From positions 8,522 to 72,521 of the forward strand of contig JAZORN010000094.1 in the NCBI GenBank assembly GCA_045656645.1: DNA of 64,000 bases. The letters run 5' to 3'. The DNA is from Clostridia bacterium. Lineage in GTDB: Bacteria; Bacillota; Clostridia; UMGS1883. Position numbers and translations under genes: made by a program. Under the pieces are notes generated by a model, which saw nothing but the letters and a program-made list of their open reading frames with translations, was not told the origin of the DNA and did no database searches. Of this stretch, positions 1,299 through 47,321 are shown piece after piece; the stretch's first letter is position 1; each line of letters opens with the position of its first letter.

Positions 1299-2246
1299 AT
1301 GGCTATAGGTGATAAGAAAGCAACCCGTGAAAGCTACGGTATGGCTCTTGCGGAGCTTGGTGAAAAATATGATATTGTTGTTATGGATGCTGACCTTTCC
1401 AAATCAACAAAGACAGATACTTTTAAAAAAAAATTTCCTGAAAGATTTATAAATACAGGTATTGCGGAGGGTAATATGCTCTCAACCGCTGCAGGTCTTG
1501 CAACAACGGGTAAGATTGTTTTTGCAAGCTCCTTTGCAATGTTTGCTGCAGGACGAGCTTTCGAGCAGATCCGTAACTCTATCGGTTATCCGCACCTTAA
1601 TGTAAAAATCGGTGCAACGCACGCAGGTATCAGCGTTGGTGAGGACGGTGCAACACATCAGTGCCTTGAGGATATGGGTATTATGCGTACTATTCCCGGA
1701 ATGGTAATTATCAATCCTGCAGACCACGTTGAGGCTATGGCGGCAGTTGAGGCTGCAGTTAAATACGAAGGACCTGTATATCTTCGTTTCGGCAGACTTC
1801 CCGTACCTCAGATTTATGATGAAAATACATACAAGTTTGAAATCGGTAAGGGTGTTCAGCTTGAAGAGGGTACAGATGCAACAATCGTTGCAACAGGTCT
1901 TATGGTGCCTTATGCTCTTGAGGCACGTCAGCTTCTTAAGGCAGAGGGTATTGATGCAGCAGTTGTAAACATTCATACAATTAAACCTATTGACAGAGAA
2001 ATCATTAAAAAGGCTGCCCAAAAGACAGGCGCAATCGTTACTGCAGAGGAGCATAATGTAAACTGCGGTCTTGGCAGTGCAGTTGCAGAGGTTCTTTGCG
2101 AGGAGTGCCCCGTTCCTATGCTCAGAGTAGGTACGCAGGACGTATTCGGTAAGAGCGGTAAGCCTTACGAGCTTCTTAAGGAATACGGACTTTCTGCAGA
2201 AAATATTGCAGAACAGGTTAAAAAAGCTATCAGTTTGAAAAAGTGA
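1299..2246 (+). CDS. Transketolase, C-terminal (pyrimidine-binding) subunit
   Basis: 315 aa, homologous to the C-terminal half of transketolase (FAMFAAGRAFEQIRNS, GATHAGISVGEDGATHQ). It is adjacent to the N-terminal subunit gene. Confidence 0.85.
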   Translation: MAIGDKKATRESYGMALAELGEKYDIVVMDADLSKSTKTDTFKKKFPERFINTGIAEGNMLSTAAGLATTGKIVFASSFAMFAAGRAFEQIRNSIGYPHLNVKIGATHAGISVGEDGATHQCLEDMGIMRTIPGMVIINPADHVEAMAAVEAAVKYEGPVYLRFGRLPVPQIYDENTYKFEIGKGVQLEEGTDATIVATGLMVPYALEARQLLKAEGIDAAVVNIHTIKPIDREIIKKAAQKTGAIVTAEEHNVNCGLGSAVAEVLCEECPVPMLRVGTQDVFGKSGKPYELLKEYGLSAENIAEQVKKAISLKK

Positions 2247-2266
2247 AAAAGTAAGGATTTGTTTGA

Positions 2267-6424: not shown

Positions 6425-7082
6425 GATTGCAATTGACGGTCCTGCGGGTGCAGGAAAAAGCACAATTTCAAAGAAGGTGGCATCATCACTCGGGTTTGTA
6501 TACATTGACACGGGTGCAATGTACCGCACAGTAGGATTAAAGGCGGTAAGATGCGGTGTAGATACAAATGATGAAAAAGGTGTTATAGAGCTTTTGCCCT
6601 CTCTTGATATTGACATCAGGCACGAAGGGGTAGAGCAGCACATCTACCTTGACGGGGAAAATGTCTCGGACAAGATACGCACACCGCAGATTTCAATGGC
6701 AGCAAGCAATGTTTCAAGAATCCCTGCAGTAAGACTTGCAATGGTTGATATGCAGAGAAAGCTTGCCCAGAATCACGACGTAGTAATGGACGGCAGAGAT
6801 ATTGCAAGTTATGTTTTACCTGATGCTGAAATTAAAATCTTTTTAACGGCATCTGTTGATGCACGTGCAAAAAGAAGATATGACGAGCTTTTGGAAAAAG
6901 GCGAGAGTGTAAGCTTTGAAGATGTGAAAAAAGAGATGATACAGCGTGATACAAATGACTCTACACGTGAGTTTGCACCGCTTACTGTTGCAGACGGGGC
7001 AGAGGTTATTGATACATCAGAGCTTACCCTTAGTGAGTCTATCGATAAAGTAATTAATTATGTGAGGGAAAATATAAAATGA
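6417..7082 (+). CDS. cmk: Cytidylate kinase
   Basis: IAIDGPAGAGKST P-loop. The 221-aa size fits Cmk. Confidence 0.9.
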   Translation: MTKIAIDGPAGAGKSTISKKVASSLGFVYIDTGAMYRTVGLKAVRCGVDTNDEKGVIELLPSLDIDIRHEGVEQHIYLDGENVSDKIRTPQISMAASNVSRIPAVRLAMVDMQRKLAQNHDVVMDGRDIASYVLPDAEIKIFLTASVDARAKRRYDELLEKGESVSFEDVKKEMIQRDTNDSTREFAPLTVADGAEVIDTSELTLSESIDKVINYVRENIK

Positions 7083-7663
7083 GTTTTTATAATATAGCGA
7101 TTAATGTTATCGGCTGCGTTTTAAAAGTATGTATGCGCTTTAAAATCAAGGGAAAGGAAAATATCCCTTCGCAGGGAGCCTTTCTTTTGTGTTCTAACCA
7201 CATGAGTGCAATGGACCCTATATTAATTGCGGCAGGGTGTAAGCGTCAGCTTACCTTTATGGCAAAGGAGGAACTTTTTAAGGTGTTTCTATTAGGGCAT
7301 CTTATAAAAGCCCTTGGCGCATTTCCTATAAAGAGGGGCAGAGGTGATGCAGCGGCAGTTATGGCAACTCTTAAAATAATGAAAAGGGGCGGCGCAACGC
7401 TTATTTTCCCCGAGGGAACACGAATGAAAAAAGGTGAACGCAAGGAAGTAAGCGGCGGTATTATACGCCTTGCAATACAGTCAGGTGTGCCGATAGTACC
7501 TGCATACGTTACGAAAAATACTGTTACATACGGAAAACCGATTTCTTATGATGAGTACGTAGAAAATGTTCAGGATGCGGGCAAAATGCAAGCACTTGCA
7601 GATAATTTAATGGACACAATTTATTCTCTCGATAATAAGAAATTACTTCAAGAGGTGGGTTGA
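7079..7663 (+). CDS. plsC: 1-acyl-sn-glycerol-3-phosphate acyltransferase
   Basis: The HxxxxD acyltransferase motif (NHMSAMDP) and FPEGTR are present. The gene overlaps cmk by 4 nt. Confidence 0.8.
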   Translation: MSFYNIAINVIGCVLKVCMRFKIKGKENIPSQGAFLLCSNHMSAMDPILIAAGCKRQLTFMAKEELFKVFLLGHLIKALGAFPIKRGRGDAAAVMATLKIMKRGGATLIFPEGTRMKKGERKEVSGGIIRLAIQSGVPIVPAYVTKNTVTYGKPISYDEYVENVQDAGKMQALADNLMDTIYSLDNKKLLQEVG

Positions 7664-9673
7664 TTGAGTACACTGACAGTACAGATTGCAGATAAGGCGG
7701 GCTTTTGCTTTGGTGTCAGCAGAGCGGTTAAAATCGCCGAGGAGGGGGCAGAAACCAAAAAAATCGCAACACTCGGCCCGATTATTCATAACCATTTTGT
7801 AACAGATGCACTTAAAGAAAAAGGTGTTCGTATTATAAATTCCCCGCTTGAGGCACAAAAGGACGAAACCGTTGTTATAAGAAGCCACGGTATAAGTAAA
7901 AAAGAGCAGGAGCTTCTTATAGAAAATAACATAGACTTTATCGATGCGACGTGTCCGTTTGTGAAGAAGATACACAATATAGTAAAGGATGCTTATGCCG
8001 AAAATCAGGAAATTGTAATTATCGGAGATAAACTGCATCCTGAGGTAAAGGGCATTAACGGGTGGTGCAATGACAGTGCGGTTGTTATCGAAACTGCCGA
8101 AGATGCTGAAAAATTGACATTTTCTGTTAAAAAAGAGGTGTGTGTTGTAGCACAAACAACTTTTGAACGGGAATTATGGAAAAAAATTACGAAAATTATA
8201 AAAAAGACTTGCCAAAGTGCTATAGTTTTTGATACAATATGTAGTGCTACGAATGAACGACAAAAATATGCCGCTCAGCTTGCAAAAGAGAGTGATGTAT
8301 TTATAGTTGTCGGCGGCAGACATAGCTCAAACACTAAAAAATTATTTGACATTGCCGCAGCTCTATGTAAAAACACCTTTTTGGTGGAGGAGGCGAGTGA
8401 GCTTCCCGAAAACATTGCACAGCTTGGACATTCGGTCGGTATAACCGCCGGTGCATCGACACCGGAGCATATCATTAAGGAGGTTTTAGAAACCATGGTA
8501 GAAGAAAAAAACACTAATATTCAAGGAAATGGAGAGCCTACATTTGCCGAGGCATTTGAACAATCCCTCGTCACTTTAAATACAGGACAGGTTGTAACGG
8601 GTACCGTTATCGGCATTACCCCCACAGAAGTATATGTAGACCTTGGCTATAAGGCTGACGGCATCATCCCTGTGGACGAGCTTTCTGACGATCCGTCAGT
8701 AAGCCCCAATGAAGTTGTTAAGGTTGGCGACGAGGTTGAGGTATTTGTTGTAAGAGTTAACGATGTTGAAGGCTATGTAAAGCTTTCAAAGAAGAAAATT
8801 GATGCTATCAAGGGATGGCAGTCAATCGAGGCAGCTTACGAGTCTGGTGAAATCCTTACAGGACGTATTGTTGAGGATGTAAATCGTGGCGTAATCGCAC
8901 TTGTAAACGGTTGCAGAATTTTCATTCCTGCTTCTATGGCAAGTGAGAGATTTATGAAGGATCTTTCTTCTCTCGTTGGAACAGAGGCAAGATTTAAGAT
9001 TGTAAACATCCGTGAGGACAGACGTGGCAGAAAGGCTATCGGATCAATCAAGGTTGTTGCACAGGCAGAGCGTGCTGAAAAGGTTGAAAAGTTTATGGCT
9101 GATGTAGAAGAGGGCAAGACATACACAGGTACTGTTAAGACTCTTACAGATTTCGGTGCATTTGTTGACCTTGGCGGCGTAGACGGTCTTATCCCGATTT
9201 CTCAGCTTAGCTGGCAGAGAATTAAGCATCCGTCAGAGGTTCTCAGTGTTGGTGACAGCGTTGAGGTTACAATCCTTAAGGTTGACAAGGAAACTACTAA
9301 GGTTTCTCTCGGATATAAGAAGGCAGAGGACAACCCCTGGGAGATTGCGAAGAGCAAGTTTAACGAGGGTGACGTTGTAAGCGCTAAGGTTGTTCGTCTC
9401 GTTCCGTTTGGTGCTTTTGTTGAGCTTATCCCCGGAATTGACGGTCTTATCCACATTTCTCAGATTGCTGATAAGAGAATTGGTAAGCCTGCTGACGTTC
9501 TTACCGTTGGTGAGATGGTTGATGCTAAGATTACCGAAATCAACTGGGATGAAAAGAAAATCGGTCTTTCAATCAGAGTTTTGATTGAAGAGGCTAAGAA
9601 GGAAACTGAAACTAATACAGAGGATGCTCCTGCTGATGTAGAAGTTACTGAGGAAGCAGCAACAGAAGAATAA
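7664..9673 (+). CDS. ispH: Bifunctional 4-hydroxy-3-methylbut-2-enyl diphosphate reductase (IspH/LytB) fused to ribosomal protein S1 domains
   Basis: 669 aa. The N-terminal roughly 280 aa are IspH-like (GFCFGVSRA, ATCPFV). The C-terminal part carries four S1 domains and an acidic tail. A TTG start is predicted. This fusion is typical of Clostridia. Confidence 0.8.
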   Translation: MSTLTVQIADKAGFCFGVSRAVKIAEEGAETKKIATLGPIIHNHFVTDALKEKGVRIINSPLEAQKDETVVIRSHGISKKEQELLIENNIDFIDATCPFVKKIHNIVKDAYAENQEIVIIGDKLHPEVKGINGWCNDSAVVIETAEDAEKLTFSVKKEVCVVAQTTFERELWKKITKIIKKTCQSAIVFDTICSATNERQKYAAQLAKESDVFIVVGGRHSSNTKKLFDIAAALCKNTFLVEEASELPENIAQLGHSVGITAGASTPEHIIKEVLETMVEEKNTNIQGNGEPTFAEAFEQSLVTLNTGQVVTGTVIGITPTEVYVDLGYKADGIIPVDELSDDPSVSPNEVVKVGDEVEVFVVRVNDVEGYVKLSKKKIDAIKGWQSIEAAYESGEILTGRIVEDVNRGVIALVNGCRIFIPASMASERFMKDLSSLVGTEARFKIVNIREDRRGRKAIGSIKVVAQAERAEKVEKFMADVEEGKTYTGTVKTLTDFGAFVDLGGVDGLIPISQLSWQRIKHPSEVLSVGDSVEVTILKVDKETTKVSLGYKKAEDNPWEIAKSKFNEGDVVSAKVVRLVPFGAFVELIPGIDGLIHISQIADKRIGKPADVLTVGEMVDAKITEINWDEKKIGLSIRVLIEEAKKETETNTEDAPADVEVTEEAATEE

Positions 9674-9681
9674 TGAAAACT

Positions 9682-9712
9682 AAAAGGCTTTGACGTTTCG
9701 TCAAAGCCTTAA
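9682..9712. terminator. Bidirectional hairpin terminator (AAGGCTTTGACG-TTT-CGTCAAAGCCTT)
   Basis: Perfect 12-bp inverted repeat immediately after the ispH-rpsA stop, between convergent genes. Confidence 0.6.
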
Positions 9713-9723
9713 TTTATCAAAAA

Positions 9724-9762
9724 TGTCACGATTTGGGGACAGTCCCCAAATGGTCACATTTT
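9724..9762 (-). terminator. Hairpin terminator for recG (ATTTGGGGAC-a-GTCCCCAAAT followed on the minus strand by a T-run)
   Basis: 10-bp inverted repeat. On the minus strand it is followed by CGTGACATTTTT. Confidence 0.5.
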
Positions 9763-9767
9763 TGGTT

Positions 9768-11810
9768 TTACAAAGCTAAATTTTGGGATAAATTTTCACT
9801 TGCTTCTTTTATATAAAAGTTTTCTTCTTTTAAAAGATGCGGGTCTTCTTTTAAAAGTGCTTCTGCGGCAATGCCGCTCTTTTTAAGTACATCAAGGTCA
9901 TTTGCAAGGTCTGCAATTTTAAAGTGCAGAGCACCGTGCTGACGTGTGCCGAAAAAGTCGCCCGGACCACGAAGTGTTAAATCCTTTTCAGATATTTTAA
10001 AGCCGTCGTTACTTTTTGTCATTATTTGCATACGCTCTTTAATATCATCTGAAAAAGAGGAGCAAAAAAGTACACAATAGCTTTTACTGCTTCCACGTCC
10101 TACACGCCCCCGAAGCTGATGCAGCTGACTAAGTCCAAACCGTTCTGCGTTTTCTATTACCATCAATGTTGCCTCGGGTACATTTACGCCAACCTCTATA
10201 ACAGTAGTTGATACAAGGATTTTACTTTGTCCGCAGATAAAATCACTCATAGCCTTTTCCTTGTCCGCACTTTTCATTTTGCCGTGGACAAGCCCCATCG
10301 GTATATCTGGGAATATTTTTGAGGATAGGTGAGAAAAATGCTCCTCTACAGATTTAAGGGGAATATTTTCTGATTCCTCAACACTGGGGCATACAATATA
10401 ACAACGGTTATTTTTCATAACCTCTTTGCGGATAAATGCATATATACGCTCGCGCATATTTTCGCCCACACAGTAGGTATCAATTACCTGTCTTCCCGGC
10501 GGAAGCTCCCCGATAACTGAAATATCCATATCTCCGTATATAATAAGTGCAAGAGTTCTTGGAATAGGTGTGGCAGTCATTACAAGGGTATGTACATCAT
10601 TGCCCTTTTCACTAAGTGCCATTCTCTGCCTTACGCCAAAACGGTGCTGTTCATCCGTTATTGCAAGGGCAAGACGCATAAAACTAACCTTTTGTGTGAT
10701 AAGTGCGTGCGTGCCGAAAAGTGCATCTATTTCGCCGCACTTAAGCTTTTCATATATTTCGCGTTTTGTTTTTTGCGATGTGCTTCCCGTAAGGAGTGCG
10801 CATTTAATTCCCAAATTCTCAAGCATAGGGGAGAGGTCATTATAATGCTGACGTGCCAGTACTTCTGTAGGAGCCATCATTGCCGCCTGATTGCCGTTTT
10901 TGACGCAGACATATATTGAAATAGCGGCTATTACTGTTTTACCGCTTCCGACGTCGCCCTGAACAAGTCTGTTCATAACAGTGCCTGAGGACAGGTCAGA
11001 AAGTATCTCATCCGTAACCTTTTTTTGCGCATTTGTGAGGGTAAAGGGAAGGGAGGAGAGAAATGGTGTAATATTTTTATCGGTAAATTTTATACCATTC
11101 TTTTTTTCGGCAGATATTTTCATTTTCCGCAGTGTTGTCTGCAGAATGAAAAATTCCTCAAACACAAGCCTCTTTTTTGCTATTTCAAGAGAATTTAAGT
11201 CAGCAGGAAAATGTATGTTCTTAATTGCAAATTCAAGTGGGCATAACGAGTATGTGCGAAGCACAGAAGGCGGAATTATATCACGCATATAGCTGTGATA
11301 CAGGCGGTAGCTCTCCATAATTAAATTACGCATAAATTTTTGCGAAATACCGCTCGTAAGGGGATATATGGGAACTATACATTTAGTACATTCTTTTTTT
11401 GATGAAAGCTCAAATTCAGGGGAAAGTATTTCCTTGTTTTTACCCCTGATATTAACCTTTCCGTAGAAAGAATATTCATAGCCAACCTTAAAATTGTTTT
11501 TTATGTATTTGTTATTAAAGAATATGCACGTTGCAATTCCCGTATCGTCACGCACCAAAAGCTTGTAGTAGGTAAGCCCTTTACGTACAAAATGCTCCGT
11601 CACGGGTGAAACTACAATTGCATTAACGCAGTGATAATTTCCGTTTTCAATATCAAAAATTTTAGAAACCTTTGTTCTGTCCTCAAAACGCACGGGAAAA
11701 TGTGTTAATAAGTCCCAAACGGTAAAAACGCCAAGGCGAAGCAATTGCTTCGCCTTGGCGTCGCCTATTCCTTTAAGTGACCTGATATCAGTTTCCATAG
11801 GGTTTAACAC
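9768..11810 (-). CDS. recG: ATP-dependent DNA helicase RecG
   Basis: 680 aa. Walker A GDVGSGKT and a DEQHRFG motif II, with a wedge-like N-terminus. Confidence 0.85.
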   Translation of the reverse strand: MLNPMETDIRSLKGIGDAKAKQLLRLGVFTVWDLLTHFPVRFEDRTKVSKIFDIENGNYHCVNAIVVSPVTEHFVRKGLTYYKLLVRDDTGIATCIFFNNKYIKNNFKVGYEYSFYGKVNIRGKNKEILSPEFELSSKKECTKCIVPIYPLTSGISQKFMRNLIMESYRLYHSYMRDIIPPSVLRTYSLCPLEFAIKNIHFPADLNSLEIAKKRLVFEEFFILQTTLRKMKISAEKKNGIKFTDKNITPFLSSLPFTLTNAQKKVTDEILSDLSSGTVMNRLVQGDVGSGKTVIAAISIYVCVKNGNQAAMMAPTEVLARQHYNDLSPMLENLGIKCALLTGSTSQKTKREIYEKLKCGEIDALFGTHALITQKVSFMRLALAITDEQHRFGVRQRMALSEKGNDVHTLVMTATPIPRTLALIIYGDMDISVIGELPPGRQVIDTYCVGENMRERIYAFIRKEVMKNNRCYIVCPSVEESENIPLKSVEEHFSHLSSKIFPDIPMGLVHGKMKSADKEKAMSDFICGQSKILVSTTVIEVGVNVPEATLMVIENAERFGLSQLHQLRGRVGRGSSKSYCVLFCSSFSDDIKERMQIMTKSNDGFKISEKDLTLRGPGDFFGTRQHGALHFKIADLANDLDVLKKSGIAAEALLKEDPHLLKEENFYIKEASENLSQNLAL

Positions 11811-28517: not shown

Positions 28518-29351
28518 ATGGAAGAAAAGCTTACCGGCTCCTTTGGATGCAAGGAAAAGGTTTGTATACAGACGGATAAAATATATGACTCTTGCAGGAG
28601 CAAGGAATGTATAGAATGTTTACGTGTGTACTTAACGGAAACCGGGCAGGAAATCGTTGACAGAGCTATTGATATAAAATGCCGTAAATCAGAGGTTATC
28701 TGGGTGTTCAGTGATGTGGAAAAGATGCCCTTTAACAGAGGTTATTATACGGTTGACCTTAATTTCTTCTTCCGCATATCTCTTGATGTTTACACAGGTG
28801 TTTCACGCCCCGTTGTTGTCGAGGGTGTTGCAAGCTATAACAAAAAGGTTGTTCTTTTCGGCAGCGAGGGAAGTGCAAAAATCTTTACATCACGTTATAA
28901 GGAAGACAGCTTTGACCCGCAGCTCTGGCAAAAAACCAATATGCCTAAGGCTATTGTGGAAACGCTCGACCCGATTTGCTTAGGTGCAAAAATCTCGGAT
29001 GCAGGGGATAAATGCTGCCATTACGGTGATGATGATATCGACGTATGCAATATTCCTGATTGCGTTTCACGAGTGTTTGAGGACAGATTTGTAAATGCAC
29101 GTGACAATCAGCGCAGAGTATATGTATCGCTTGGTCTTTTCACAATTATTAAGCTTGAACGAAATGTTCAGCTTCTTATCCCTGCATATGATTTCTGTAT
29201 TCCTGAAAAAGAGTGCGTGACAAATTCACCTGATGATCCGTGTGAAATTTTTGCAAATATAAATTTCCCTGTGGATGAATTTTTCCCGCCCGTAGAGGGA
29301 TGTCTGAGCGGGGATAGCAATGAATGTAATTGCTGCGGTGAGGATGAGTAA
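28518..29351 (+). CDS. Hypothetical cysteine-rich protein (about 26 Cys in 277 aa), no signal peptide
   Basis: Start at ATG 28518, after a strong RBS TAAGGAGGA. The N-terminus has CKEKVC...CRSKECIEC and the C-terminus has several Cys pairs (CCHYG, CNIPDC, ECNCCGEDE). I recognise no family. Confidence 0.5.
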   Translation: MEEKLTGSFGCKEKVCIQTDKIYDSCRSKECIECLRVYLTETGQEIVDRAIDIKCRKSEVIWVFSDVEKMPFNRGYYTVDLNFFFRISLDVYTGVSRPVVVEGVASYNKKVVLFGSEGSAKIFTSRYKEDSFDPQLWQKTNMPKAIVETLDPICLGAKISDAGDKCCHYGDDDIDVCNIPDCVSRVFEDRFVNARDNQRRVYVSLGLFTIIKLERNVQLLIPAYDFCIPEKECVTNSPDDPCEIFANINFPVDEFFPPVEGCLSGDSNECNCCGEDE

Positions 29352-29364
29352 AACTAAATAAAGA

Positions 29365-29402
29365 ACAAAAAATGCTTCGCAATTCATAGCGAAGCATTTT
29401 TT
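29365..29402. terminator. Bidirectional rho-independent terminator (ATGCTTCGC-aattcata-GCGAAGCAT flanked by an A-run and a T-run)
   Basis: 9-bp stem flanked by A6 and T6, between convergent genes. Confidence 0.7.
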
Positions 29403-29412
29403 GTAGTAAAAG

Positions 29413-30294
29413 TTATTTATCAAGAATTTCTTTGCACGATGCGGCAAGTCCTGCAATAGACTGCATTTCTGACGGAATAATAATTTTTGTTGCCTGACCG
29501 TCTGCAACCTTTTCCATACTTTCAAGAGATTTAATGGCAATATATGCCTTTGAGGGATTAGCCTCATTGATTTTGCGGATACCCTCTGCAATAGCAGTTT
29601 GCACGGCGATAATCGCTTCAGCTTCACCCTCCGCCTCACGGATGGCGGACTGCTTTTTCGCCTCTGCACGAAGAATGGCAGACTCTTTTTCCCCCTCTGC
29701 CATAAGTATTGCAGATTTCTTTTCACCCTCTGCACGCAGAATTGACTCTCTTCTTTCACGCTCTGCTTTCATCTGCTTTTCCATTGCATTCTGAATTTCC
29801 TTTGGAGGAATGATGTTTTTAAGCTCTACACGGTTGATTTTAATACCCCAGGGGTCTGTAGCCTCATCAAGAATAGCACGCATTTTTGTGTTAACGGTAT
29901 CACGAGAGGTAAGAGTTCCGTCGAGGTCGAGGTCACCGATAATGTTTCGAAGTGTTGTAGCGGTGAGGTTTTCAATAGCCATCATCGGACGTTCAACACC
30001 GTAGGTATAAAGCTTGGGGTCGGTAATCTGGAAATAAACTACGGTGTCAATCTGCATTGATACGTTATCCTTTGTTATAACGGGCTGGGGAGGGAAGTCC
30101 ACAACCTGCTCTTTAAGATTTACTCTTTTTGAAATGCGGTCAATAAAGGGAATTTTGATGTGAAGTCCAACTGACCAAGTTTCGCTGTACCCTCCAAAAC
30201 GCTCAATTACATATGCGTATGCCTGAGGTACAATTTTTATGTTGGATATTACCAAAACCAACAAAATCACAATAATAGTTAAAATGAATTCCAT
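29413..30294 (-). CDS. SPFH/Band-7 domain protein (stomatin/slipin-like)
   Basis: N-terminal TM segment, a PHB domain, and a C-terminal coiled coil with repeated EGEKESAILRAE units. Confidence 0.8.
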   Translation of the reverse strand: MEFILTIIVILLVLVISNIKIVPQAYAYVIERFGGYSETWSVGLHIKIPFIDRISKRVNLKEQVVDFPPQPVITKDNVSMQIDTVVYFQITDPKLYTYGVERPMMAIENLTATTLRNIIGDLDLDGTLTSRDTVNTKMRAILDEATDPWGIKINRVELKNIIPPKEIQNAMEKQMKAERERRESILRAEGEKKSAILMAEGEKESAILRAEAKKQSAIREAEGEAEAIIAVQTAIAEGIRKINEANPSKAYIAIKSLESMEKVADGQATKIIIPSEMQSIAGLAASCKEILDK

Positions 30295-30297
30295 AAA

Positions 30298-30729
30298 TTA
30301 ATCCTCCTTTTTAATATCAACAATTAATTTTACTCCGTCAATTTTCTTTACTGTTACAGTTGTGCCTGCGGGAATGTCTTCACCGTTTTCACTGCGTGCA
30401 CTCCAAACCATTGCACCCACCTTTACACTACCGCTTGAATTAATGTTTGATATTAATTCAAGTACAGTGCCGTTTTGCCCGATAAGTGCATCGGTGTTCG
30501 TTTTGAGCGGTTCTTTCGTCTTTAACTTACGTATTAATTTGCGTGTGAAAATAAGAAGAAGTGTTGAAACAATTACGAAAACAATCGTCTGCAACCATAT
30601 ACCTGCGCCAGACATTGCTGCAATTAACGCCGCAAAAGCTCCGCCTGCAAACCAAATTGATACAAACTGTACCGTTGCAGCCTCTAAGCATATAAGGGCT
30701 ATTACTAAAATTGTCCAGAATAATGCCAT
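30298..30729 (-). CDS. NfeD family membrane protein (stomatin operon partner)
   Basis: 143 aa. Two N-terminal TM helices and a C-terminal OB-fold-like segment. Sits immediately upstream of the SPFH gene, the usual NfeD-stomatin pairing. Confidence 0.7.
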   Translation of the reverse strand: MALFWTILVIALICLEAATVQFVSIWFAGGAFAALIAAMSGAGIWLQTIVFVIVSTLLLIFTRKLIRKLKTKEPLKTNTDALIGQNGTVLELISNINSSGSVKVGAMVWSARSENGEDIPAGTTVTVKKIDGVKLIVDIKKED

Positions 30730-30740
30730 ACAAAAACCTC

Positions 30741-32405
30741 CTAATTAAGATATTTGTCAAACACACTCATAGTGCCGTCAGGTGTGTCCATAAAATAGGG
30801 GCGGGCAATAAATTCACCGTTATAGTCTGCCGCGTGCCACCATATTCCAACTTTGATTTTGTCATATTCAGGAAGGGAGAGGAACATATCCTCAATCCAT
30901 TTAACCTTGTCACCGCCTACGGAAGAACAGGAAAACTCCGTTATCATAATAGGCTTTTCATTTATGAGGAGAGCCCTTTCATAAACGGGGGCATAGATTT
31001 CATCAAAGCTTCTCCATGTTTCGCCCTCATAATAAGTTCCTGTGTTATAGCCTGTAATTCCGTATACATCAACATATTCATCGCCCGGGTAGTAGAGAAA
31101 TTCGCTGTTCCATTTGTAGTTAGGGAAGCTTATTTCATTTGGATTCCATACCCATATGGTGTTACTGCAGCCTGCGGCTTTAAATTTATCGTAGAGATAT
31201 CTGTAAAGCTCTACATATAACTGCGGGTCACGGGATGTATGGAATGCACTGTAATTACACCAGTCACCATTCATTTCATTAAACGGTCTGAAGAGAACGG
31301 TAACATAAGGGTAGCTTGCAACGAGCTTTGTATATGCGTTTATGAATTGGTCATATTCTCCGTCTAAGATTTCATAAATCATATTTTTATCGGTTTTTCT
31401 TGAAAGTGGAACCTGAAGTGTAAGTTCAAGTGCTTTACCGCTTTTTTGAGCATATTTGAAGCTACCTTCAACTTTTTTAATGTAAGTGTTTATTTTTTCA
31501 AGGTAGTTGACTGAGTTTAAACCTGCTTTGTCGGTGAATTCCGTATATGTGAGAAATGCACAGAATTCATAGCCAAGAGTCTCTTCAAACTCTTCCATCC
31601 TTTGAATTCCGCCGTATTTATCGGGCGGGAACATTCCCATTTTAAATGTTGCATCATCTGAAAACAGTTTTTCGTAGGTTGCCTTTGCAGTGGGGTTAAG
31701 CCGTGTAACACTGCTTTTTTTATACCCTGAATTGTATGCGTTGGTCTGTGCTATAACTGGGTCAAAGGTTGTAAGAGAGCTTACTATATCCATATAGCCG
31801 TTATTTGCGAAAAGCTGTGATGAAGAAGCGAAGAAAAACGTATAAACCCTTGCGCCGATGCACACATCCACGCACGCATAATAGTTTTTATCATTATTTA
31901 TGCGTGAAAGTTTCTTTCGTGACCATTCAAGAATATGGTATTCGTAATTACCTACGCTATAGTTTTCCTGCTTTATAATTTTATGGTCTGCAGTGTTTTC
32001 TGTAAATCTGTTTGAATATTTAAGATATGAAAGACGCTCGCTGTCTGTGTCAAAAACTTCTTTGAAAATACGTATTTTTCTGTAGCTGTCCTCAAGTGTT
32101 GCACATATCGAGGATTGCGACATATCAACCTTCATATCATATGGTATTCTGACAGAATATCCGTCGACAAGGTTCGTGAATTTCTGACCGCCTGAAAGCT
32201 GCTCCAATGTATACATCTCCTGAATGCTTTTCATAGCAGTGCCGCTTGCAGCAGGAATATTTTCATTGTCAATCAGTGCATCGGGTGCCATCCAGACGGG
32301 CGGAGAAAGAACACGCATAGGGGACGGTAAAACAGATGCAAATGCAGTAGCAGAAGTGCTTGCAATAAGTAAGAATATGCAAATAAATGATAATAATCTT
32401 TTCAT
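30741..32405 (-). CDS. Secreted glycoside hydrolase, GH26-like (clan GH-A), with an uncharacterised N-terminal domain of about 200 aa
   Basis: Signal peptide MKRLLSFICIFLLIASTSATAFA. The candidate acid/base region is RPFNEMNGDW, and the candidate nucleophile is IMITEF. A VDVYGITGYN motif is also present. Start placed at ATG 32405. Confidence 0.55.
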   Translation of the reverse strand: MKRLLSFICIFLLIASTSATAFASVLPSPMRVLSPPVWMAPDALIDNENIPAASGTAMKSIQEMYTLEQLSGGQKFTNLVDGYSVRIPYDMKVDMSQSSICATLEDSYRKIRIFKEVFDTDSERLSYLKYSNRFTENTADHKIIKQENYSVGNYEYHILEWSRKKLSRINNDKNYYACVDVCIGARVYTFFFASSSQLFANNGYMDIVSSLTTFDPVIAQTNAYNSGYKKSSVTRLNPTAKATYEKLFSDDATFKMGMFPPDKYGGIQRMEEFEETLGYEFCAFLTYTEFTDKAGLNSVNYLEKINTYIKKVEGSFKYAQKSGKALELTLQVPLSRKTDKNMIYEILDGEYDQFINAYTKLVASYPYVTVLFRPFNEMNGDWCNYSAFHTSRDPQLYVELYRYLYDKFKAAGCSNTIWVWNPNEISFPNYKWNSEFLYYPGDEYVDVYGITGYNTGTYYEGETWRSFDEIYAPVYERALLINEKPIMITEFSCSSVGGDKVKWIEDMFLSLPEYDKIKVGIWWHAADYNGEFIARPYFMDTPDGTMSVFDKYLN

Positions 32406-32440
32406 AAATAAAATGTCCTTTTTTTGAAAATTTAAGACTA

Positions 32441-33613
32441 TCACAGAGCCTTATTAAGATAATATGTGAATTTTTCAAAGCTAAGCTTGTGCACGTCATA
32501 TACCAGAGAAATATTCATATCATGTGCACGCTTTATAAAATGCTCTCTTGCGGAGGCGTTTTTTGATATATAGGTGCAAACAAGAACTTTTTTTGAATAT
32601 GCACCGCCAAGAGCACGTGAAACGGCATCAAGCTCATACAAGGCATCCTTTTTCACTTCACCGTTTTTACACGATATAAAAAGCGGATGCAGATTTGAAA
32701 TTGCCATAACATCAATTTCATTTTGAGTGTCTGAAAAAGAGCTATTGTCATTCCATTCAATGCTGACCCCTGTTTTTATATCATATACAGACTCAGAAAG
32801 CGAGGAAGCTGCATAAGCAGTGTAATATTCAAGCGCATTTCCTGCTTTCAGTATAAGTTTTGCAACAAGGCTATAGCAAATACGATATACAGTTCTTTGC
32901 ACTGTGTCGCTTTCTTTTTCTATAAGATTGCGACTGCAAAGCTCATTAAAAACTGCGTTAATATCTTTGGCTGTACGTTTAAGTTTTATTGCAAAATCAT
33001 TTTTGTTTATAATTATTTTCTTCCCGTTTTGGCTGATGCATTCGGCTGCGGCATTGCAAAATGCACTGTATGCCTCACAATCGAGTGCATTTACCGCAAA
33101 CATTTGAGATAAAGCATAAATATCGTCCTTGGTAAAATCATATATTGTATCGCTGCGTAAAATTTTACCGCCCTGAAGTGTTATCGCATCAGCAAGAGAA
33201 ATTTGGGGATTTAATGCTGTAAGAGGGGAAGTGCCCGCATGAATTTCTACAATGCCTAAATCCCTTGCATCAACTCTTATTATCGGAATATTAAACTGCT
33301 GTGAAATTATTCCCACAACCGCTAAAATTACGTCTTCGCCGCCCGTAACATCAAAAATACAATCCGTGTTATTTTTGACAAGCTGTGTAAGCCTGCTTTT
33401 CACGGAATTAGCATTATCCCTCTCAACATACAAAAACTCAAGCGGAAGAGTACTTTTTCTGCGTCGGTAAAAGCTTTTGAGGTTTTCTGTTTTCTGAGGT
33501 GTCATTACCTCTCTTGTGCCGACGTATATGACCTTGGAAATATTATCAAGTATGATGGGCGAGAGAATATTTTCATATTGTTTTGCATCGAAAATTTCAA
33601 CAAGCGTATACAT
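32441..33613 (-). CDS. Card1/Can2-like protein: CARF-like N-terminal domain fused to a C-terminal PD-(D/E)xK nuclease domain (DUF1887-like)
   Basis: 390 aa from ATG 33613, after RBS GGAGAT. The C-terminus has D...(17)...ExK (EIDVMAISNLHPLFISCKNGEVKK) followed by a YxxxD-like segment. The N-terminal Rossmann-like block is IFDVTGGEDVILAVVGIISQ. A consensus promoter lies directly upstream. Assignment is by motif only. Confidence 0.4.
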   Translation of the reverse strand: MYTLVEIFDAKQYENILSPIILDNISKVIYVGTREVMTPQKTENLKSFYRRRKSTLPLEFLYVERDNANSVKSRLTQLVKNNTDCIFDVTGGEDVILAVVGIISQQFNIPIIRVDARDLGIVEIHAGTSPLTALNPQISLADAITLQGGKILRSDTIYDFTKDDIYALSQMFAVNALDCEAYSAFCNAAAECISQNGKKIIINKNDFAIKLKRTAKDINAVFNELCSRNLIEKESDTVQRTVYRICYSLVAKLILKAGNALEYYTAYAASSLSESVYDIKTGVSIEWNDNSSFSDTQNEIDVMAISNLHPLFISCKNGEVKKDALYELDAVSRALGGAYSKKVLVCTYISKNASAREHFIKRAHDMNISLVYDVHKLSFEKFTYYLNKAL

Positions 33614-33643
33614 AGTATCTCCTATATTAATATATCTAAGATA

Positions 33644-33673
33644 TATTATAGTATAAAAAATATATAATGTCAA
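33644..33673 (-). promoter_or_regulatory. Near-consensus sigma-A promoter (TTGACA, 18-nt spacer, TATAAT) for the Card1/Can2-like gene
   Basis: On the minus strand the sequence reads TTGACA ttatataattttttatac TATAAT, about 30 nt upstream of the RBS. Confidence 0.6.
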
Positions 33674-33710
33674 TGTTGTGAAAAGCAGCAAAAGAAAAAA
33701 TAAATAATAG

Positions 33711-33739
33711 TTGACCTTGGAAATTATTTGCGTTATAAT
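33711..33739 (+). promoter_or_regulatory. Near-consensus sigma-A promoter (TTGACC, 17-nt spacer, TATAAT) for the secreted repeat protein
   Basis: TTGACC at 33711-33716 and TATAAT at 33734-33739. It diverges from the promoter above. Confidence 0.6.
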
Positions 33740-33790
33740 TGAAGTAAGAAAAATATATTTATAATATTAAGAAAGGCAATGGAGATTTAT

Positions 33791-34972
33791 ATGAAAAAAA
33801 CTTTTAAGGTTTTAGTTTGCTTATCAGCATCTCTTCTTATGGCAACGGGTGTTTTTGCTGAAAAAACACAGCTTTATTCCCTTGACGGCAGAACTCTTTA
33901 TGTTGATGAAAGTCAGGTTGCAGTTTATACCGCAGAGGGTATGGGTTGGTTTCTGGAAAAGCCTGTTACAATGTACAGTGCAGACGGCCGCAGCATAGTT
34001 GTGCGTGCAGACCAGGTGGAGGCACATAAGAATGTCGGTTGGTTCTTAGAAGGGGATCAGACTTCTTCAGATGATACACAGAAGGATGAAAATGTGAACA
34101 CTGATGCACCAAAGCCTGATACACAAGAAAATTCATCAAAAAATAATCTTATTGCAATAAAATATACAGACGGTACTATTATAAAGGCACCTGCATATCA
34201 GCTTGATATGTATAAGGCACTTGGTTGGGTAGAGGCAGGAAGTGCTTCTACAGAAAATGAAACAGTGACTATGTACGATGCAAACGGAGTTGCGAAAGAA
34301 GTTAAGCTGAGCGAAGTTTCAAAGTATGAACTTGCAGGATGGACAAAGGTAAAGCCTGAGGGTGAATACATAACTGTATATTACTACGATGGCTCTACGA
34401 AGAACATTCCCGCATCATCTGCCGAAACTTACAAGGCCCAGGGCTGGTACAGTGCATATGATGAGGCTGTTTATGCATACGCTGCATTTGGTAACGGCGC
34501 AGATGTAGTCGGTGCAACAAAGCTTCTTGAGGAAAAGAAGTATGAGCTTGCATTCAATTTGGTTCAGGATGCACTTGATAAAATAGAAAATACACAGTCT
34601 GAATACGTATCAATGCTTTATTATCTGCGTTCTATGGTTACAGATACGTGGAGAGAGGCGGCAAAATCTCCGCTCGGTTTCATAAATTACTGGTTTAGCG
34701 AAAAAGACGGAAAATCACTGATTGTATTTGAGTACAGAAACGTAAGCAACAGCAGAATAAGCTCGTTTAAAATAAACTTTGATATTTGTGATAAAGACGG
34801 AAATATCGTTGAAACAAATTCAGGTTCATATTTTGTAAACAATCTGCAGATGACCCCTTGTGAGAAAAAGAGAGTTGCCTGGATTATAACAAAGGGTGAC
34901 GTTGCGGCAAGCATTAAAAATCTTAAGGTTAACGAGGTTGTTTTCTCGGATAATACAAAGTGGAATGGTTAA
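33791..34972 (+). CDS. Secreted protein with five degenerate repeats of about 35 aa (Y-x2-DG-...-V-...-GW) and a C-terminal domain of about 180 aa
   Basis: Signal peptide MKKTFKVLVCLSASLLMATGVFA. The repeats are LYSLDGRTLYVD...GMGWF, MYSADGRSIVVR...NVGWF, IKYTDGTIIKAP...ALGWV, MYDANGVAKEVK...LAGWT and YYYDGSTKNIPA...AQGWY. Confidence 0.6.
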   Translation: MKKTFKVLVCLSASLLMATGVFAEKTQLYSLDGRTLYVDESQVAVYTAEGMGWFLEKPVTMYSADGRSIVVRADQVEAHKNVGWFLEGDQTSSDDTQKDENVNTDAPKPDTQENSSKNNLIAIKYTDGTIIKAPAYQLDMYKALGWVEAGSASTENETVTMYDANGVAKEVKLSEVSKYELAGWTKVKPEGEYITVYYYDGSTKNIPASSAETYKAQGWYSAYDEAVYAYAAFGNGADVVGATKLLEEKKYELAFNLVQDALDKIENTQSEYVSMLYYLRSMVTDTWREAAKSPLGFINYWFSEKDGKSLIVFEYRNVSNSRISSFKINFDICDKDGNIVETNSGSYFVNNLQMTPCEKKRVAWIITKGDVAASIKNLKVNEVVFSDNTKWNG

Positions 34973-34977
34973 GAATA

Positions 34978-37845
<2,868 letters not shown>

Positions 37846-37864: not shown

Positions 37865-38389
37865 ATGAAAAGAATAACTCTTCCTATAAAAGAGAATGAT
37901 ATAGAAAATCTTAAAGCAGGGGATAGTGTACTGCTCTCAGGAAAGATAATTACGGGGCGTGATGCCGCACACAAGAGGTTTTATGACCTCGTAATGAGCG
38001 GGGAGAAGCTACCGATTGACATAAAAGGCCAAATAATATACTATGTAGGCCCCGCACCTGCAAAGCCCGGATATGCCATAGGACCTGCAGGACCGACATC
38101 AAGCTACAGAATGGATAAGTACACTCCCGTTTTGCTTGATATGGGACTTACGGGTATGATTGGAAAAGGCATAAGAAATAAAGAGGTAATCAGTTCAATA
38201 ATTAAAAATAAGGCAGTGTATTTTGCCGCTATCGGCGGTGCTGCGGCGCTTATTTCAAAATCAATAAAGGAGGCAAAATGCCTTTGTTACGAGGATTTGG
38301 GTGCAGAGGCGGTCTGCGAATATGTTATAGAGGATTTTCCGTGCATTGTAGCAATTGATTCCTGCGGTAACAATGTTTATGATTATTGA
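37865..38389 (+). CDS. Fe-S hydro-lyase, tartrate/fumarate subfamily beta subunit
   Basis: 174 aa, homologous to the class I fumarase/tartrate dehydratase beta chain. Follows the alpha gene. Confidence 0.75.
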   Translation: MKRITLPIKENDIENLKAGDSVLLSGKIITGRDAAHKRFYDLVMSGEKLPIDIKGQIIYYVGPAPAKPGYAIGPAGPTSSYRMDKYTPVLLDMGLTGMIGKGIRNKEVISSIIKNKAVYFAAIGGAAALISKSIKEAKCLCYEDLGAEAVCEYVIEDFPCIVAIDSCGNNVYDY

Positions 38390-38409
38390 TAAAATTTATC
38401 AAAAATATC

Positions 38410-38438
38410 TTGCCTTTAGATAAGATATATAGTATAAT
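38410..38438 (+). promoter_or_regulatory. Sigma-A type promoter (TTGCCT, 17-nt spacer, TATAAT)
   Basis: TTGCCT at 38410-38415 and TATAAT at 38433-38438, upstream of the small P-loop protein gene. Confidence 0.5.
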
Positions 38439-38478
38439 ATATACAAGGAAACCAAATAAACTTTTAGGAGGGCTTACT

Positions 38479-38889
38479 ATGATAAATGTTATTATTGGCG
38501 AAAAAGGCACCGGCAAAACGGCGAAGCTTATTGAGGCAGTACATATTGCTGAAAAAGCGGCTACCGGAAGCGTAGTTTTCATTAACAAAGGAAAGAGACA
38601 TGTGTTGGATCTTTCACATGGTGTAAGACTTGTTGACACCGAGGAATACGGTATGTCTTCTTATGAGGAGTTTTTCGGTTTTGTATGCGGTATTCTTTCA
38701 CAGAATTACGATATTGCTCATATTTTTATTGACAGTATTACAAAGATTGTAAACGATGATATGGCAGCACTTGAGAAATTCCTTGACAGAATCAGTGTTG
38801 TAGCTGAAAAGAGCAATGCTGAAATTCAGATTATTCTCAGTATGAATCCTGCAGATGCTTCTGAGGGTATTAAGAAGTACGTAAAATAA
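38479..38889 (+). CDS. Small P-loop NTPase, hypothetical (136 aa)
   Basis: Walker A VIIGEKGTGKTA. A Walker B-like segment HIFIDSI. Start at ATG 38479, after RBS AGGAGG. A promoter lies upstream and a terminator follows. Confidence 0.5.
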   Translation: MINVIIGEKGTGKTAKLIEAVHIAEKAATGSVVFINKGKRHVLDLSHGVRLVDTEEYGMSSYEEFFGFVCGILSQNYDIAHIFIDSITKIVNDDMAALEKFLDRISVVAEKSNAEIQIILSMNPADASEGIKKYVK

Positions 38890-46773: not shown

Positions 46774-46992
46774 TGGTGGAGGCGAGGGGAGACGGATGCT
46801 CAGCATCCTACCTGCTTGACGACCGAAAGCAAAGCTTTCGGTACCCGTCTGCGCACCAACTTCGCTGAAAATGATTATCAATCATTTTCTTACGCTCGTT
46901 GCCCTCATAGGGTTCAACTCCCTAATAAAGCAGTAAAAAAGGAACATACCTTGTGGTACATTCCTTTTTTATTATGGTGGAGGCGAGGGGAG
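46774..46992. repeat. Exact 18-bp direct repeat TGGTGGAGGCGAGGGGAG (46774-46791 and 46975-46992); the second copy is the 3' end of ssrA
   Basis: The two copies are 201 bp apart. Three perfect hairpins (46794-46808, 46823-46841, 46867-46889) and a T-arm-like GGGTTCAACTCCC lie between them. Confidence 0.6.
46935..46970 (-). terminator. Terminator hairpin of ssrA (minus strand: GGAAUGUACC-acaa-GGUAUGUUCC followed by UUUUUU)
   Basis: 10-bp stem with two G-U pairs, immediately 3' of the tmRNA CCA end. Confidence 0.6.
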
Positions 46993-47321
46993 TTGAACCC
47001 CTGTCCGAAAACATATTCACACAGGCATCTCCGAGCGCAGTCACTTATTTAACATTCCCTCCGCCGCAAGGCAAGTGACAGCCCATACGGTTTTAGTAGC
47101 TTCATTTGTCATGCATAGCGCAAAGCTTAACTATGTCACGTTCACCACTGCGTGACGCTCTTATCCGAGCCGTGGTCCTCCCGGTAAGAACGGCCGCCTA
47201 ATTAGGCAGCGTAAGCTAAATTATTGTTAGCGTTTAAATTTAAAATTCGGGATTTTAACGCAGTTCCCGCTGCGGCTCGCTTCCCATGCTTCAACATCCC
47301 CGTCGAAGCCGGTACGCCCCC
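46975..47321 (-). ncRNA. ssrA: tmRNA (transfer-messenger RNA, SsrA)
   Basis: The minus strand reads 5'-GGGGGCGUACCGGCUUCGACGGGGAU...GGACAGGGGUUCAACUCCCCUCGCCUCCACCA-3'. It has a tRNA-like acceptor and T-arm. The internal ORF GCU AAC AAU AAU UUA GCU UAC GCU GCC UAA encodes the tag ANNNLAYAA. smpB lies immediately upstream. Confidence 0.9.

Follow-up and report, generated by a model that had tools for sequence, protein, structure and literature searches.

A Stand-Alone Can2/Card1-Family Nuclease Gene in a Clostridia Bacterium, and Relatives Beside SAM-AMP-Type CRISPR Loci That Suggest a Possible SAM-AMP-Tuned Subfamily

1. Introduction

The Can2/Card1 proteins, represented in the Protein Data Bank (PDB) by SthCan2 (7BDV), TresuCard1 (6WXW/6XL1), TbrCan2 (8Q3Z) and Cdn1 (9U49), belong to systems that signal through cyclic tetra-adenylate (cA4), and they share an order of domains in which a CARF sensor is followed by an insertion and then by a PD-(D/E)xK nuclease. 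A motif, NxTGGTK, is found in the CARF domain of all Can2 clades and mediates the binding of cyclic oligoadenylate (cOA); the catalytic consensus of the family is E-ExD-(E/S)CK, and an insertion (INS) domain is reported in most of the clades (PMC10783487). Here, we describe a gene for a protein with the same domain order, which is found in a Clostridia bacterium (GTDB lineage Bacteria; Bacillota; Clostridia; UMGS1883; assembly GCA_045656645.1) at positions 32,441 to 33,613 of a 64,000-nucleotide stretch of contig JAZORN010000094.1 (contig positions 8,522 to 72,521); the whole of this stretch is called the window below. A first-pass annotation of the window, made from its sequence without database searches, had described the gene as an orphan Card1/Can2-like effector. 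That observation is partly confirmed by the present analysis, and the interpretation given to it is partly supported.

Among solved structures, the best match in sequence is the Vibrio cholerae protein VC1899 (PDB 1XMX), founding member of DUF1887, which also gives the top template-modelling (TM) score, 0.77. VC1899 is an orphan with no link to type III CRISPR; its pocket is acidic and not of the cA4 type, with Asp at the position of Ser19 of SthCan2, and it does not respond to cA4, having only a weak, unregulated RNase activity (PMC7969007). It differs from the protein described here in having E-C-K and the loop SCGLRHR in place of S-C-K and TGGED, and it comes from a different phylum. Moreover, the subfamily to which our protein belongs has CRISPR-linked members, whereas VC1899 was treated simply as an orphan in the Can2 paper (PMC7969007).

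Two other kinds of system are relevant to the comparison. The first is the module of Bacteroides fragilis that signals through the conjugate of S-adenosylmethionine (SAM) and AMP (SAM-AMP), and that consists of Cmr proteins, CorA and NrN, a DEDD-type enzyme or a SAM-AMP lyase. CorA-type III-B systems signal through SAM-AMP, the synthesis of which is abolished in a D70N/E151R double mutant of Cas10 (PMC10600005). CorA senses SAM-AMP by a domain of its own, unrelated to CARF; relatives of our gene adjoin cmr1-6, corA and sometimes a gene with a DEDD fold, and the window itself has none of the genes of the module. The second comprises the CARF regulators of the Csa3 type, in which, as in our protein, a CARF domain is followed by a winged-helix-like module. 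Structural matches to Csa3 are, however, confined to the CARF part (TM 0.27), and Csa3 lacks the complete nuclease domain.

2. Family and Fold

The gene is an open reading frame (ORF) on the minus strand, from an ATG at 33613 to a TGA at 32443-32441, and its product of 390 residues is the one that had been annotated; residue numbers below refer to it. In Pfam, PF09002 (Card1_endonuc) matches residues 256-371 with 36.5 bits, where 26.4 is the cut-off, and PF23400 (CARF_Card1) matches residues 24-93 below its threshold (14.7 bits against 24.6). The PADLOC profile CARF4--CARF_PDDEXK covers residues 3-381 with E=1.8e-36. No match was found in a search of NCBIfam profiles with the protein, nor in a look-up of its exact sequence. 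As a single sequence, the protein finds only VC1899 in the PDB (E=0.003); a profile of 45 sequences, searched against PDB sequences, finds VC1899 (1.2e-13), SthCan2, a Can2 of Dysgonamonadaceae and Cdn1.

An AlphaFold2 (AF2) model built on the same alignment of 45 sequences has a mean predicted local confidence (pLDDT) of 91.4 and a predicted TM score of 0.88. Its best Foldseek matches are Cdn1 (9u49; E=2e-23, TM 0.73) and VC1899, and full-length alignments were also obtained with SthCan2, the Dysgonamonadaceae Can2, Card1 and TbrCan2. Every match with E<1e-8 is to Can2, Card1, Cdn1, VC1899 or Can1, and weaker matches limited to the CARF domain include Csa3, Crn1/Sso2081, Cam1 and Csm6. For the Can2/Card1 proteins, the full-length alignments with the predicted fold have TM scores of 0.62-0.73 at a sequence identity of 12-18%. 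The block IFDVTGGEDVILAVVGIISQQFNIPIIRV (residues 85-114), in which the first-pass annotation had seen a Rossmann-like CARF domain, is indeed modelled as strand-loop-helix-strand within such a domain. Membership of the CARF class is thus carried by the fold, the Pfam sequence model staying below its cut-off. The insertion domain that follows resembles helix-turn-helix (HTH) proteins of the ArsR type in a profile search, at a level that is not significant (E ~0.3).

Profile, predicted fold and catalytic motif (Section 3) therefore agree on the Card1/Can2 (DUF1887) architecture that had been proposed, and the protein is almost certainly a true CARF nuclease of the Can2 family (CARF4/Crf4). The outcomes that the first-pass annotation had named as fatal to its proposal, namely an N-terminus outside the CARF class, a C-terminus without the PD-(D/E)xK fold or membership of a housekeeping family, did not appear in the profile and Foldseek searches; the Pfam, NCBIfam and PADLOC results contain no match to the RecB family or to NucS.

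3. The Active Site

Conservation was counted in an alignment of 83 relatives that are 21-93% identical to the protein. The helix Glu, E262, is invariant (83/83) and aligns with the Glu of GxWFE in Can2, VC1899 and Cdn1. The metal-binding strand NEID, in which N298, E299 and D301 are invariant, aligns with NELDV of SthCan2 (E276/D278) and with the corresponding strand of VC1899 (E291/D293). The third element, S314-C315-K316, is likewise found in all 83 relatives and in 149 of the 150 best representatives, and the profile alignment places it in the same column as E-C-K of VC1899, SthCan2, 8bao and Cdn1.

The first-pass annotation had instead placed the end of the catalytic motif at E-V-K (E319 and K321). 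This assignment was abandoned, since these residues are variable (E319 is kept in 38/83 relatives and K321 in 14/83) and lie five residues beyond the aligned column. Another possibility, that a Ser at the Glu position marks an inactive enzyme, was also dropped: the Can2 consensus allows Ser, and TbrCan2, which has Ser356 at the position of Glu308 in Card1 and Glu291 in SthCan2, is active nonetheless, as a two-metal nuclease relying on E304, E341 and D343 (PMC10783487). To judge by the shared motif, Glu304 of TbrCan2 would be the equivalent of E262. Since E-ExD-SCK equals the Can2 consensus and TbrCan2 is active with Ser, the predicted active site is complete and canonical, and the nuclease is probably active.

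4. The Ligand Pocket

The likeness to Can2/Card1 does not extend to most of the residues that would hold the ligand. The contacts with cA4 that are common to Can1 and SthCan2 are Ser19, Thr42, Lys99 and Tyr118 (PMC7969007), and in the profile alignment these positions are occupied by D9, T33, D94 and R113, so that three of the four are changed and the Thr alone is retained. The T-G-G core of the loop is common to both, but NxTGGTK is replaced by D88-V-T-G-G-E93-D94 and, in the subfamily as a whole, by an acidic DxTGG[E/D][D/E].

These residues are far from variable. G91 and G92 are present in 83/83 relatives, and E6 (80/83) and N15 (81/83) are invariant apart from gaps; G32 is found in 82/83, D88 in 77/83, T90 in 76/83, D9 in 73/83 and E14 in 65/83, and an acidic residue, D or E, occupies position 94 in 80/83. 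Conservation is alike in orphan and in CRISPR-linked members, which argues that the pocket is under selection; it appears from the alignment to be rebuilt differently from the cA4 pocket and to be largely acidic. The label "cOA-activated", which the gene had been given, is therefore not upheld: NxTGGTK is lost, most of the cA4 contacts are changed, and the CRISPR loci to which relatives are linked are of the SAM-AMP and not of the cA4 type, as described next.

5. CRISPR-Linked Relatives

To describe the contexts of the relatives, ORFs were called in all loci and then clustered; the loci, on genome or metagenome contigs, are designated by L numbers. In 16 of 168 loci, the Can2-like gene lies directly beside cas6 or the cmr genes of a type III-B system. 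These loci span five sequence clusters and at least five gene arrangements. Four of them are genome loci, in which the gene adjoins Cmr1, a short Cas10/Cmr2, Cmr3 to Cmr6, Cas6 and a CorA-like protein (PADLOC E=1e-61 to 1e-77). A scan of metagenome contigs gave 12 further loci, so that the association is replicated in two independent collections; the order there is the Can2-like gene, about 58 nt, and then cas6-cmr1-cas10-cmr3-cmr4-cmr5-cmr6-corA. Over all the linked loci, CorA was found in the ten with enough contig (E=1e-51 to 1e-77). A search of PDB sequences with CorA gave no match.

The Cas10 proteins of these loci have 9lq5_B as their closest PDB entry (E=9.4e-57, the next match being at 6e-17). 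The residues D70 (GLFPDRYIF), E151 (NIIENQ) and GGD328D329 of this entry match the published numbering of the B. fragilis protein, from which 9lq5_B appears to be the B. fragilis SAM-AMP synthase. The equivalent of E151, together with GGDD, is present in all 11 of the adjacent Cas10s that could be aligned, and that of D70 in all ten that cover the position.

In five of the loci (L116, L130, L133, L134 and L137), corA is followed directly by an ORF of 176-199 residues (for example, L116:17410-17940 and L130:19350-19949) that has no match in Pfam, PADLOC or PDB sequences. Its AF2 model (pLDDT 93) is matched by Foldseek to oligoribonuclease, REXO2 and RNase T, the very proteins to which the DEDD-type SAM-AMP phosphodiesterase is reported to be structurally similar. 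This makes the predicted product a candidate for a SAM-AMP phosphodiesterase with a DEDD fold. Its homologues include a hypothetical protein of Streptococcus suis (P0097). Because of the Cas10 signature, CorA and this ORF, the linked loci can be read as complete SAM-AMP systems with one extra gene, that of the Can2-like protein. In the literature searched, no CARF protein was described in SAM-AMP signalling; the 2025 classification of CRISPR systems considers the SAM-AMP pathway's components poorly characterised and exceptions to be possible sources of new sensors.

Two other loci, L142 and L115, have the Can2-like gene followed by a truncated cas6 (158 residues as against 249) and by a remnant of 43-62 residues of the DEDD-like gene (L142:9226-9832; L115:11712-11897). 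This looks like the clean loss of the whole cmr1-6/corA module with the Can2-like gene left behind, and it indicates that orphans can arise by deletion of that module.

Several observations concern the surroundings of individual linked loci. In L053, a reverse transcriptase (RT)-Cas1 fusion of 636 residues and Cas2 (6815-9000), together with an array of 10 repeats (9274-9884), sit between cmr/corA and the Can2-like gene, the array ending about 115 nt before that gene; this SAM-AMP-type locus probably acquires spacers from RNA. The linked loci from the human gut adjoin genes for a coupling protein of the TraG/VirD4 type, as found in type IV secretion systems, and for a protein of about 1130 residues with a double AAA domain and an M41 peptidase, similar to FtsH (L130:1310-4702, 8426-9817; L116:2014-5397, 6428-7771), which suggests carriage of the type III-B/CorA/Can2-like module by a conjugative element. 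An ORF of about 1170 residues (cluster c24) adjoins the orphans L045, L079, L083 and L088 and may, on its size alone, be the same FtsH-like protein. Just upstream of the CRISPR-linked gene in L109 are genes for a protein with a TNT (tuberculosis necrotizing toxin) domain, similar to NAD+ glycohydrolases, and a transglutaminase-like protein (1271-1933 and 2070-3128); this region may be a defence or toxin island.

6. Distribution and the Stand-Alone Clade

A word-indexed search gave 68 homologues, all but six of them with PF09002; an exhaustive profile search gave 893 clusters (at 50% identity) with E<=1e-30 and 3568 with E<=1e-3, and, when one genome per species was scanned, relatives turned up in at least 488 genomes. 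The 80 genome loci that were fetched all come from Clostridia, mostly Oscillospiraceae, Acutalibacteraceae and Ruminococcaceae; their sources are metagenome-assembled genomes, mostly from gut or rumen, with bioreactor Clostridia as well. The viral contigs of IMG/VR contain no relatives, and a phage origin or a function as an anti-defence gene was set aside on that account.

The clade of the window gene, the members of which are 44-93% identical, has a context of its own. In 15 loci, across species, the Can2-like gene is directly followed by a GH26-like gene and then by genes for an NfeD and an SPFH protein, and this order is constant where the outer flanks differ. The gene is under purifying selection, with a dN/dS of 0.089 against its orthologue in L009, the protein of which is 93% identical. 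None of the 13 members of its sequence cluster (n=18) that have at least 3 kb on each flank is linked to cas genes. The rest of the subfamily is 26-33% identical to the protein and has varied neighbours. Since the block is confined to this clade and the neighbours of other members vary, a functional coupling of the nuclease to the GH26-like, NfeD and SPFH proteins was not retained; the block is treated as inherited synteny and probable co-transcription only.

In eight loci of this clade, an ORF of about 905 residues ends about 3 nt before the start codon of the Can2-like gene (for example, L011:655-3378, L005:7278-9998 and L003:7269-9998). It has no match in Pfam or PADLOC, and tblastn did not find it in the window. 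Inspection by eye suggests a large glycoside hydrolase of the cytoplasm, and its neighbours are sugar-utilisation genes (FGGY kinase, RhaA and AraC). On these grounds, it was set aside as a hidden generator of the signal. One subfamily member (P0196, 833 residues) carries a C-terminal extension of about 400 residues of repeats similar to tetratricopeptide repeats (TPR), a fusion that is not seen in the characterised Can2 proteins.

7. A Possible SAM-AMP-Gated Nuclease

The reading favoured here, with a confidence that is about evenly balanced, is that the protein is an active, ligand-gated nuclease of the Can2/Card1 type, that it comes from a subfamily tuned to SAM-AMP, and that it has no local source of its signal in this genome region. 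By analogy with Can2, Card1 and Cdn1, it would form a homodimer that binds a small-molecule signal across its paired N-terminal CARF domains, with one ligand per dimer, and this binding would switch on the two-metal PD-(D/E)xK nuclease, leading to non-specific cleavage of nucleic acids. The ligand of the subfamily would be SAM-AMP, or a close relative among SAM adenylates, rather than cA4. The methionine moiety of SAM-AMP is positively charged, and the acidic residues of the pocket might play for it the part that D70 and E151 play in Cas10. The window copy would be a product of vertical inheritance and lead a four-gene operon under a consensus promoter; a type III-B/CorA system at another place in the genome would trigger it in trans, or it would have adapted to another cue.

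Since the linked members all lie beside type III-B loci with a Cas10 of SAM-AMP signature, and with CorA where this is visible, SAM-AMP is the most likely ligand; that the subfamily senses it is, on sequence and context, a possibility rated a little below an even chance. It is slightly more doubtful that the window copy is still used in phage defence.

A number of points weigh against the SAM-AMP reading. The link is one of guilt by association, in about 10% of loci, and the clade of the window gene, which is 27-30% identical to the CRISPR-linked members, is itself never CRISPR-linked, the window gene having neither corA nor a Cas10 of SAM-AMP signature among its neighbours. The ligand of this clade could have diverged. 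The pocket is not uniformly acidic, as one subgroup has Lys at position 93 (TGGKE), and the pocket of VC1899 is also acidic, so that acidity may mark a loss of ligand control and not a new ligand. A conserved place in an operon of sugar and membrane-protein genes is unusual for a defence gene. Finally, CorA has been proposed to have cyclic hexa-adenylate (cA6) as its activator in some type III-D loci.

8. Alternative Explanations

The alternative that survives best is that the protein has been domesticated, as may have happened with VC1899, and works independently of CRISPR, its nuclease being unregulated or responding to an endogenous metabolite derived from adenosine or SAM, with a cellular role tied to the conserved operon or to the DNA-repair genes nearby. 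Given the strict synteny, the core setting and the purifying selection, this is a serious alternative for the clade of the window gene, even if it is improbable overall. The absence of cas genes from all the informative loci of the clade agrees with it, as do the variable flanks of a syntenic block, the core genes around that block (Section 9) with no mobile-element genes nearby, the low dN/dS, the lack of relatives in viral contigs, and the precedent of VC1899 itself, an orphan with an acidic pocket and a weak RNase activity independent of cA4. However, the CRISPR-linked members share the pocket residues, which suggests the same class of ligand, and a non-specific nuclease that was constitutive and unregulated would be toxic. 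Moreover, no functional logic connects a nuclease of the cytoplasm with NfeD, SPFH and a GH26-like protein that is secreted, and the synteny may simply be inherited.

Another explanation would be a canonical Can2/Card1 protein activated by cA4 (or cA6) and switched on in trans by a distant type III system that makes cOA, the option that the first-pass annotation had named first. The fold and catalytic motif are those of the cA4-activated Can2, Card1 and Cdn1, and T90-G91-G92 and T33, the equivalent of Thr42, are retained. This explanation is nevertheless quite unlikely, considering that the motif for cOA binding reads DVTGGED, that two of the three replaced cA4 contacts have become acidic residues expected to repel phosphates, and that none of the 16 CRISPR-linked relatives lies beside a locus of the Csx1, Csm6 or cA4 type.

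A third proposal is that the subfamily does not kill but handles the signal of SAM-AMP systems, whether as an enzyme that switches it off by degradation, as a sponge, or as a ligand-controlled regulator acting on the cas operon; the copy in the window would then be a leftover or serve in detoxification. CorA effectors are described as tied obligately to enzymes for SAM-AMP degradation (NrN, DEDD or lyase), and no domain of NrN or SAM lyase was found by Pfam or PADLOC in the flanking ORFs scanned at L041, L052, L053 and L085, nor was there a tblastn match to the DEDD-fold ORF at these loci or at L109; for a regulator, it can be said that the gene is often the first of the cas operon, that it carries a winged-helix-like insert, and that one source annotates a homologue as a "predicted transcriptional regulator". 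This proposal is marginally the least likely of the three, as five other loci already have a phosphodiesterase candidate in the DEDD-fold ORF after corA (which weakened the idea of a replacement SAM-AMP phosphodiesterase), the fully conserved E-ExD-SCK site, of the nucleic-acid type, argues for nuclease chemistry, the known Can2 CARF domains are without ring-nuclease activity according to the literature, and the resemblance to HTH proteins is not significant.

9. The Locus and Its Surroundings

The coordinates of the gene, its motifs and domains, and the adjoining features are collected in Table 1.

Table 1. Features of the Can2-like gene and of the genes downstream, in window coordinates.
Feature	Position	Strand	Basis
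Can2/Card1-family CARF-nuclease coding sequence, stop included	32441..33613	minus	ORF; PF09002; PADLOC; AF2/Foldseek
CARF (Rossmann-like) sensor domain, about residues 1-155	33149..33613	minus	AF2 alternating strand/helix; full-length Foldseek alignments
Helical winged-helix-like insertion domain, about residues 160-255	32849..33136	minus	AF2 H-H-E-H-H-E-E pattern
PD-(D/E)xK nuclease domain, residues 256-390	32444..32848	minus	PF09002, residues 256-371; AF2; Foldseek
D9 codon, beta1-alpha1 loop	33587..33589	minus	Aligns with cA4-contacting Ser19 of SthCan2
Ligand loop, V89-T90-G91-G92-E93-D94 (directly after the D88 codon)	33332..33349	minus	Aligns with NVTGGTK of SthCan2
E262 codon, helix Glu of E-ExD-(E/S)CK	32826..32828	minus	Invariant 83/83; aligns with GxWFE Glu of Can2, VC1899, Cdn1
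N298-E299-I300-D301, metal-binding ExD strand	32711..32722	minus	N298, E299, D301 invariant 83/83
S314-C315-K316, (E/S)CK motif	32666..32674	minus	Invariant 83/83
Predicted sigma-70-type promoter	33645..33673	minus	-35 TTGACA 33673-33668, 17-nt spacer, -10 TATAAT 33650-33645
Shine-Dalgarno-like AGGAGA, 4 nt 5' of ATG	33618..33623	minus	Sequence read directly
GH26-like protein, N-terminal signal peptide (downstream gene 2)	30741..32405	minus	PF02156 E=7.8e-16, partial match
NfeD-like membrane protein (downstream gene 3)	30298..30729	minus	PF01957; synteny
SPFH/Band_7 (stomatin-like) protein (downstream gene 4)	29413..30294	minus	PF01145 E=6e-43; synteny
Terminator-like hairpin, 16 pairs then T-run, 9 nt past SPFH stop	29365..29404	minus	

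The mechanically called ORF of the Can2-like gene opens at an upstream TTG (33691), and that of the GH26-like gene at a GTG (32444), where the ATG at 32405 is the likely start. The predicted sigma-70-type promoter had been described as near-consensus with a spacer of 18 nt; it is in fact better than that, with 12/12 matches to the consensus, and its spacer is of 17 nt. It is the sole perfect site within 29300-35100 (5.8 kb). The gaps between the four genes, which are on the same strand, are about 35, 11 and 3 nt, and the genes likely form an operon, with the hairpin as the probable end of its transcript. Inside the SPFH gene is a tandem repeat of 33 nt (29642-29742; 3.1 copies, 73% matches) that encodes a repetitive AEGEKxSAIL coiled-coil tail, which is probably ordinary in stomatin-like proteins.

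Divergently from the Can2-like gene, at 33779-34972 on the plus strand, lies a gene for a protein of 397 residues with a signal peptide and repeated segments of the GW type (VGWFLE, LGWVEA, AGWTKV and QGWYSA), for which a Pfam scan gave no match. It has a promoter-like site of its own (11/12) at 33711-33739, and a homologue adjoins ligA in related genomes (387 residues in L005 and L006; ORF cluster c10).

The statement that the gene has no CRISPR-Cas or cyclase partner nearby holds over the 64 kb. No CRISPR array was found by Tandem Repeats Finder or by an array scan based on k-mers; a Pfam scan of essentially all window ORFs of at least 120 residues found no cas genes, no Cas10 and no cGAS/DncV-like nucleotidyltransferase (CD-NTase); tblastn of the Cmr and CorA proteins of relatives gave no match; and an Rfam scan found only the transfer-messenger RNA (tmRNA).

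The genes that Pfam identifies in the window are core or housekeeping genes only: transketolase, PcrA, Cmk, IspH-S1, RecG, FakA, an SbcCD-like pair, SpoIIR, LepA, RecX, Alr, RadA, LigA, fumarase, glycerate kinase, NagA/B, RNase R, PyrH, Frr, UppS, CdsA, Dxr, RseP, NusB, XseA, PrfA, HprK, MurB, RapZ and WhiA. The four-gene patch, which is embedded among such genes (alr, radA, ligA and fumarase), had been called accessory-looking. Its GH26-like, NfeD, SPFH and signal-peptide neighbours are as had been reported, but the core genes around it and its synteny speak against an accessory nature. Its GC content is 0.37-0.38 as against 0.39-0.44 in the flanks, and the Pfam scans of window ORFs show no integrase, transposase or mobile-element genes nearby; a signature of horizontal transfer was rejected, the GC content being only slightly under that of the flanks. 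The tmRNA gene (RF00023, 161.6 bits; 46975-47321, minus strand) adjoins RNase R, a typical core arrangement, which helps to place the window on the chromosome. An ORF of 167 residues (38386-38889, plus strand) with the P-loop GEKGTGKT, for which Pfam gives no match at E<=1e-6, separates the gene of the fumarase beta subunit from that of glycerate kinase.

10. Significance

Orphan homologues of Can2, such as VC1899, are already known, and the CARF4 profiles of PADLOC match the subfamily, so that the protein does not open a new category. Novelty seems to lie in three things taken together: a Can2 subfamily with an acidic pocket, an exclusive linkage to SAM-AMP-type III-B/CorA loci, and many conserved stand-alone copies. 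In the literature searched, CorA is the only kind of SAM-AMP receptor described, alongside a few degrading enzymes. A family of the Can2 type without the cOA motif, found beside SAM-AMP-type III-B loci, is therefore a concrete candidate for a second SAM-AMP receptor, and for the way in which the ligand of a CARF pocket can shift from a ring that is polyanionic to a conjugate that is cationic.

Should the SAM-AMP idea prove wrong, the gene would be another orphan Can2 homologue, a known phenomenon. In its fullest form, the idea would make the subfamily the first CARF-domain receptor of SAM-AMP, its acidic pocket standing in for the phosphate-binding NxTGGTK loop, so that the SAM-ATP conjugate of CorA-type III-B systems would fire a nuclease of the Can2 type; hundreds of stand-alone copies in gut Clostridia, the window gene among them, would still answer SAM-AMP or a related SAM-derived metabolite with no CRISPR locus linked to them. 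This can be put forward only tentatively. The clade of the window gene is suited to genetics, with its clean synteny, strong purifying selection and consensus promoter. If the idea is true, SAM-AMP signalling reaches past CorA and past the CRISPR loci. The stand-alone copies of gut and rumen Clostridia reopen the older question of the role of "orphan" CARF proteins such as VC1899.

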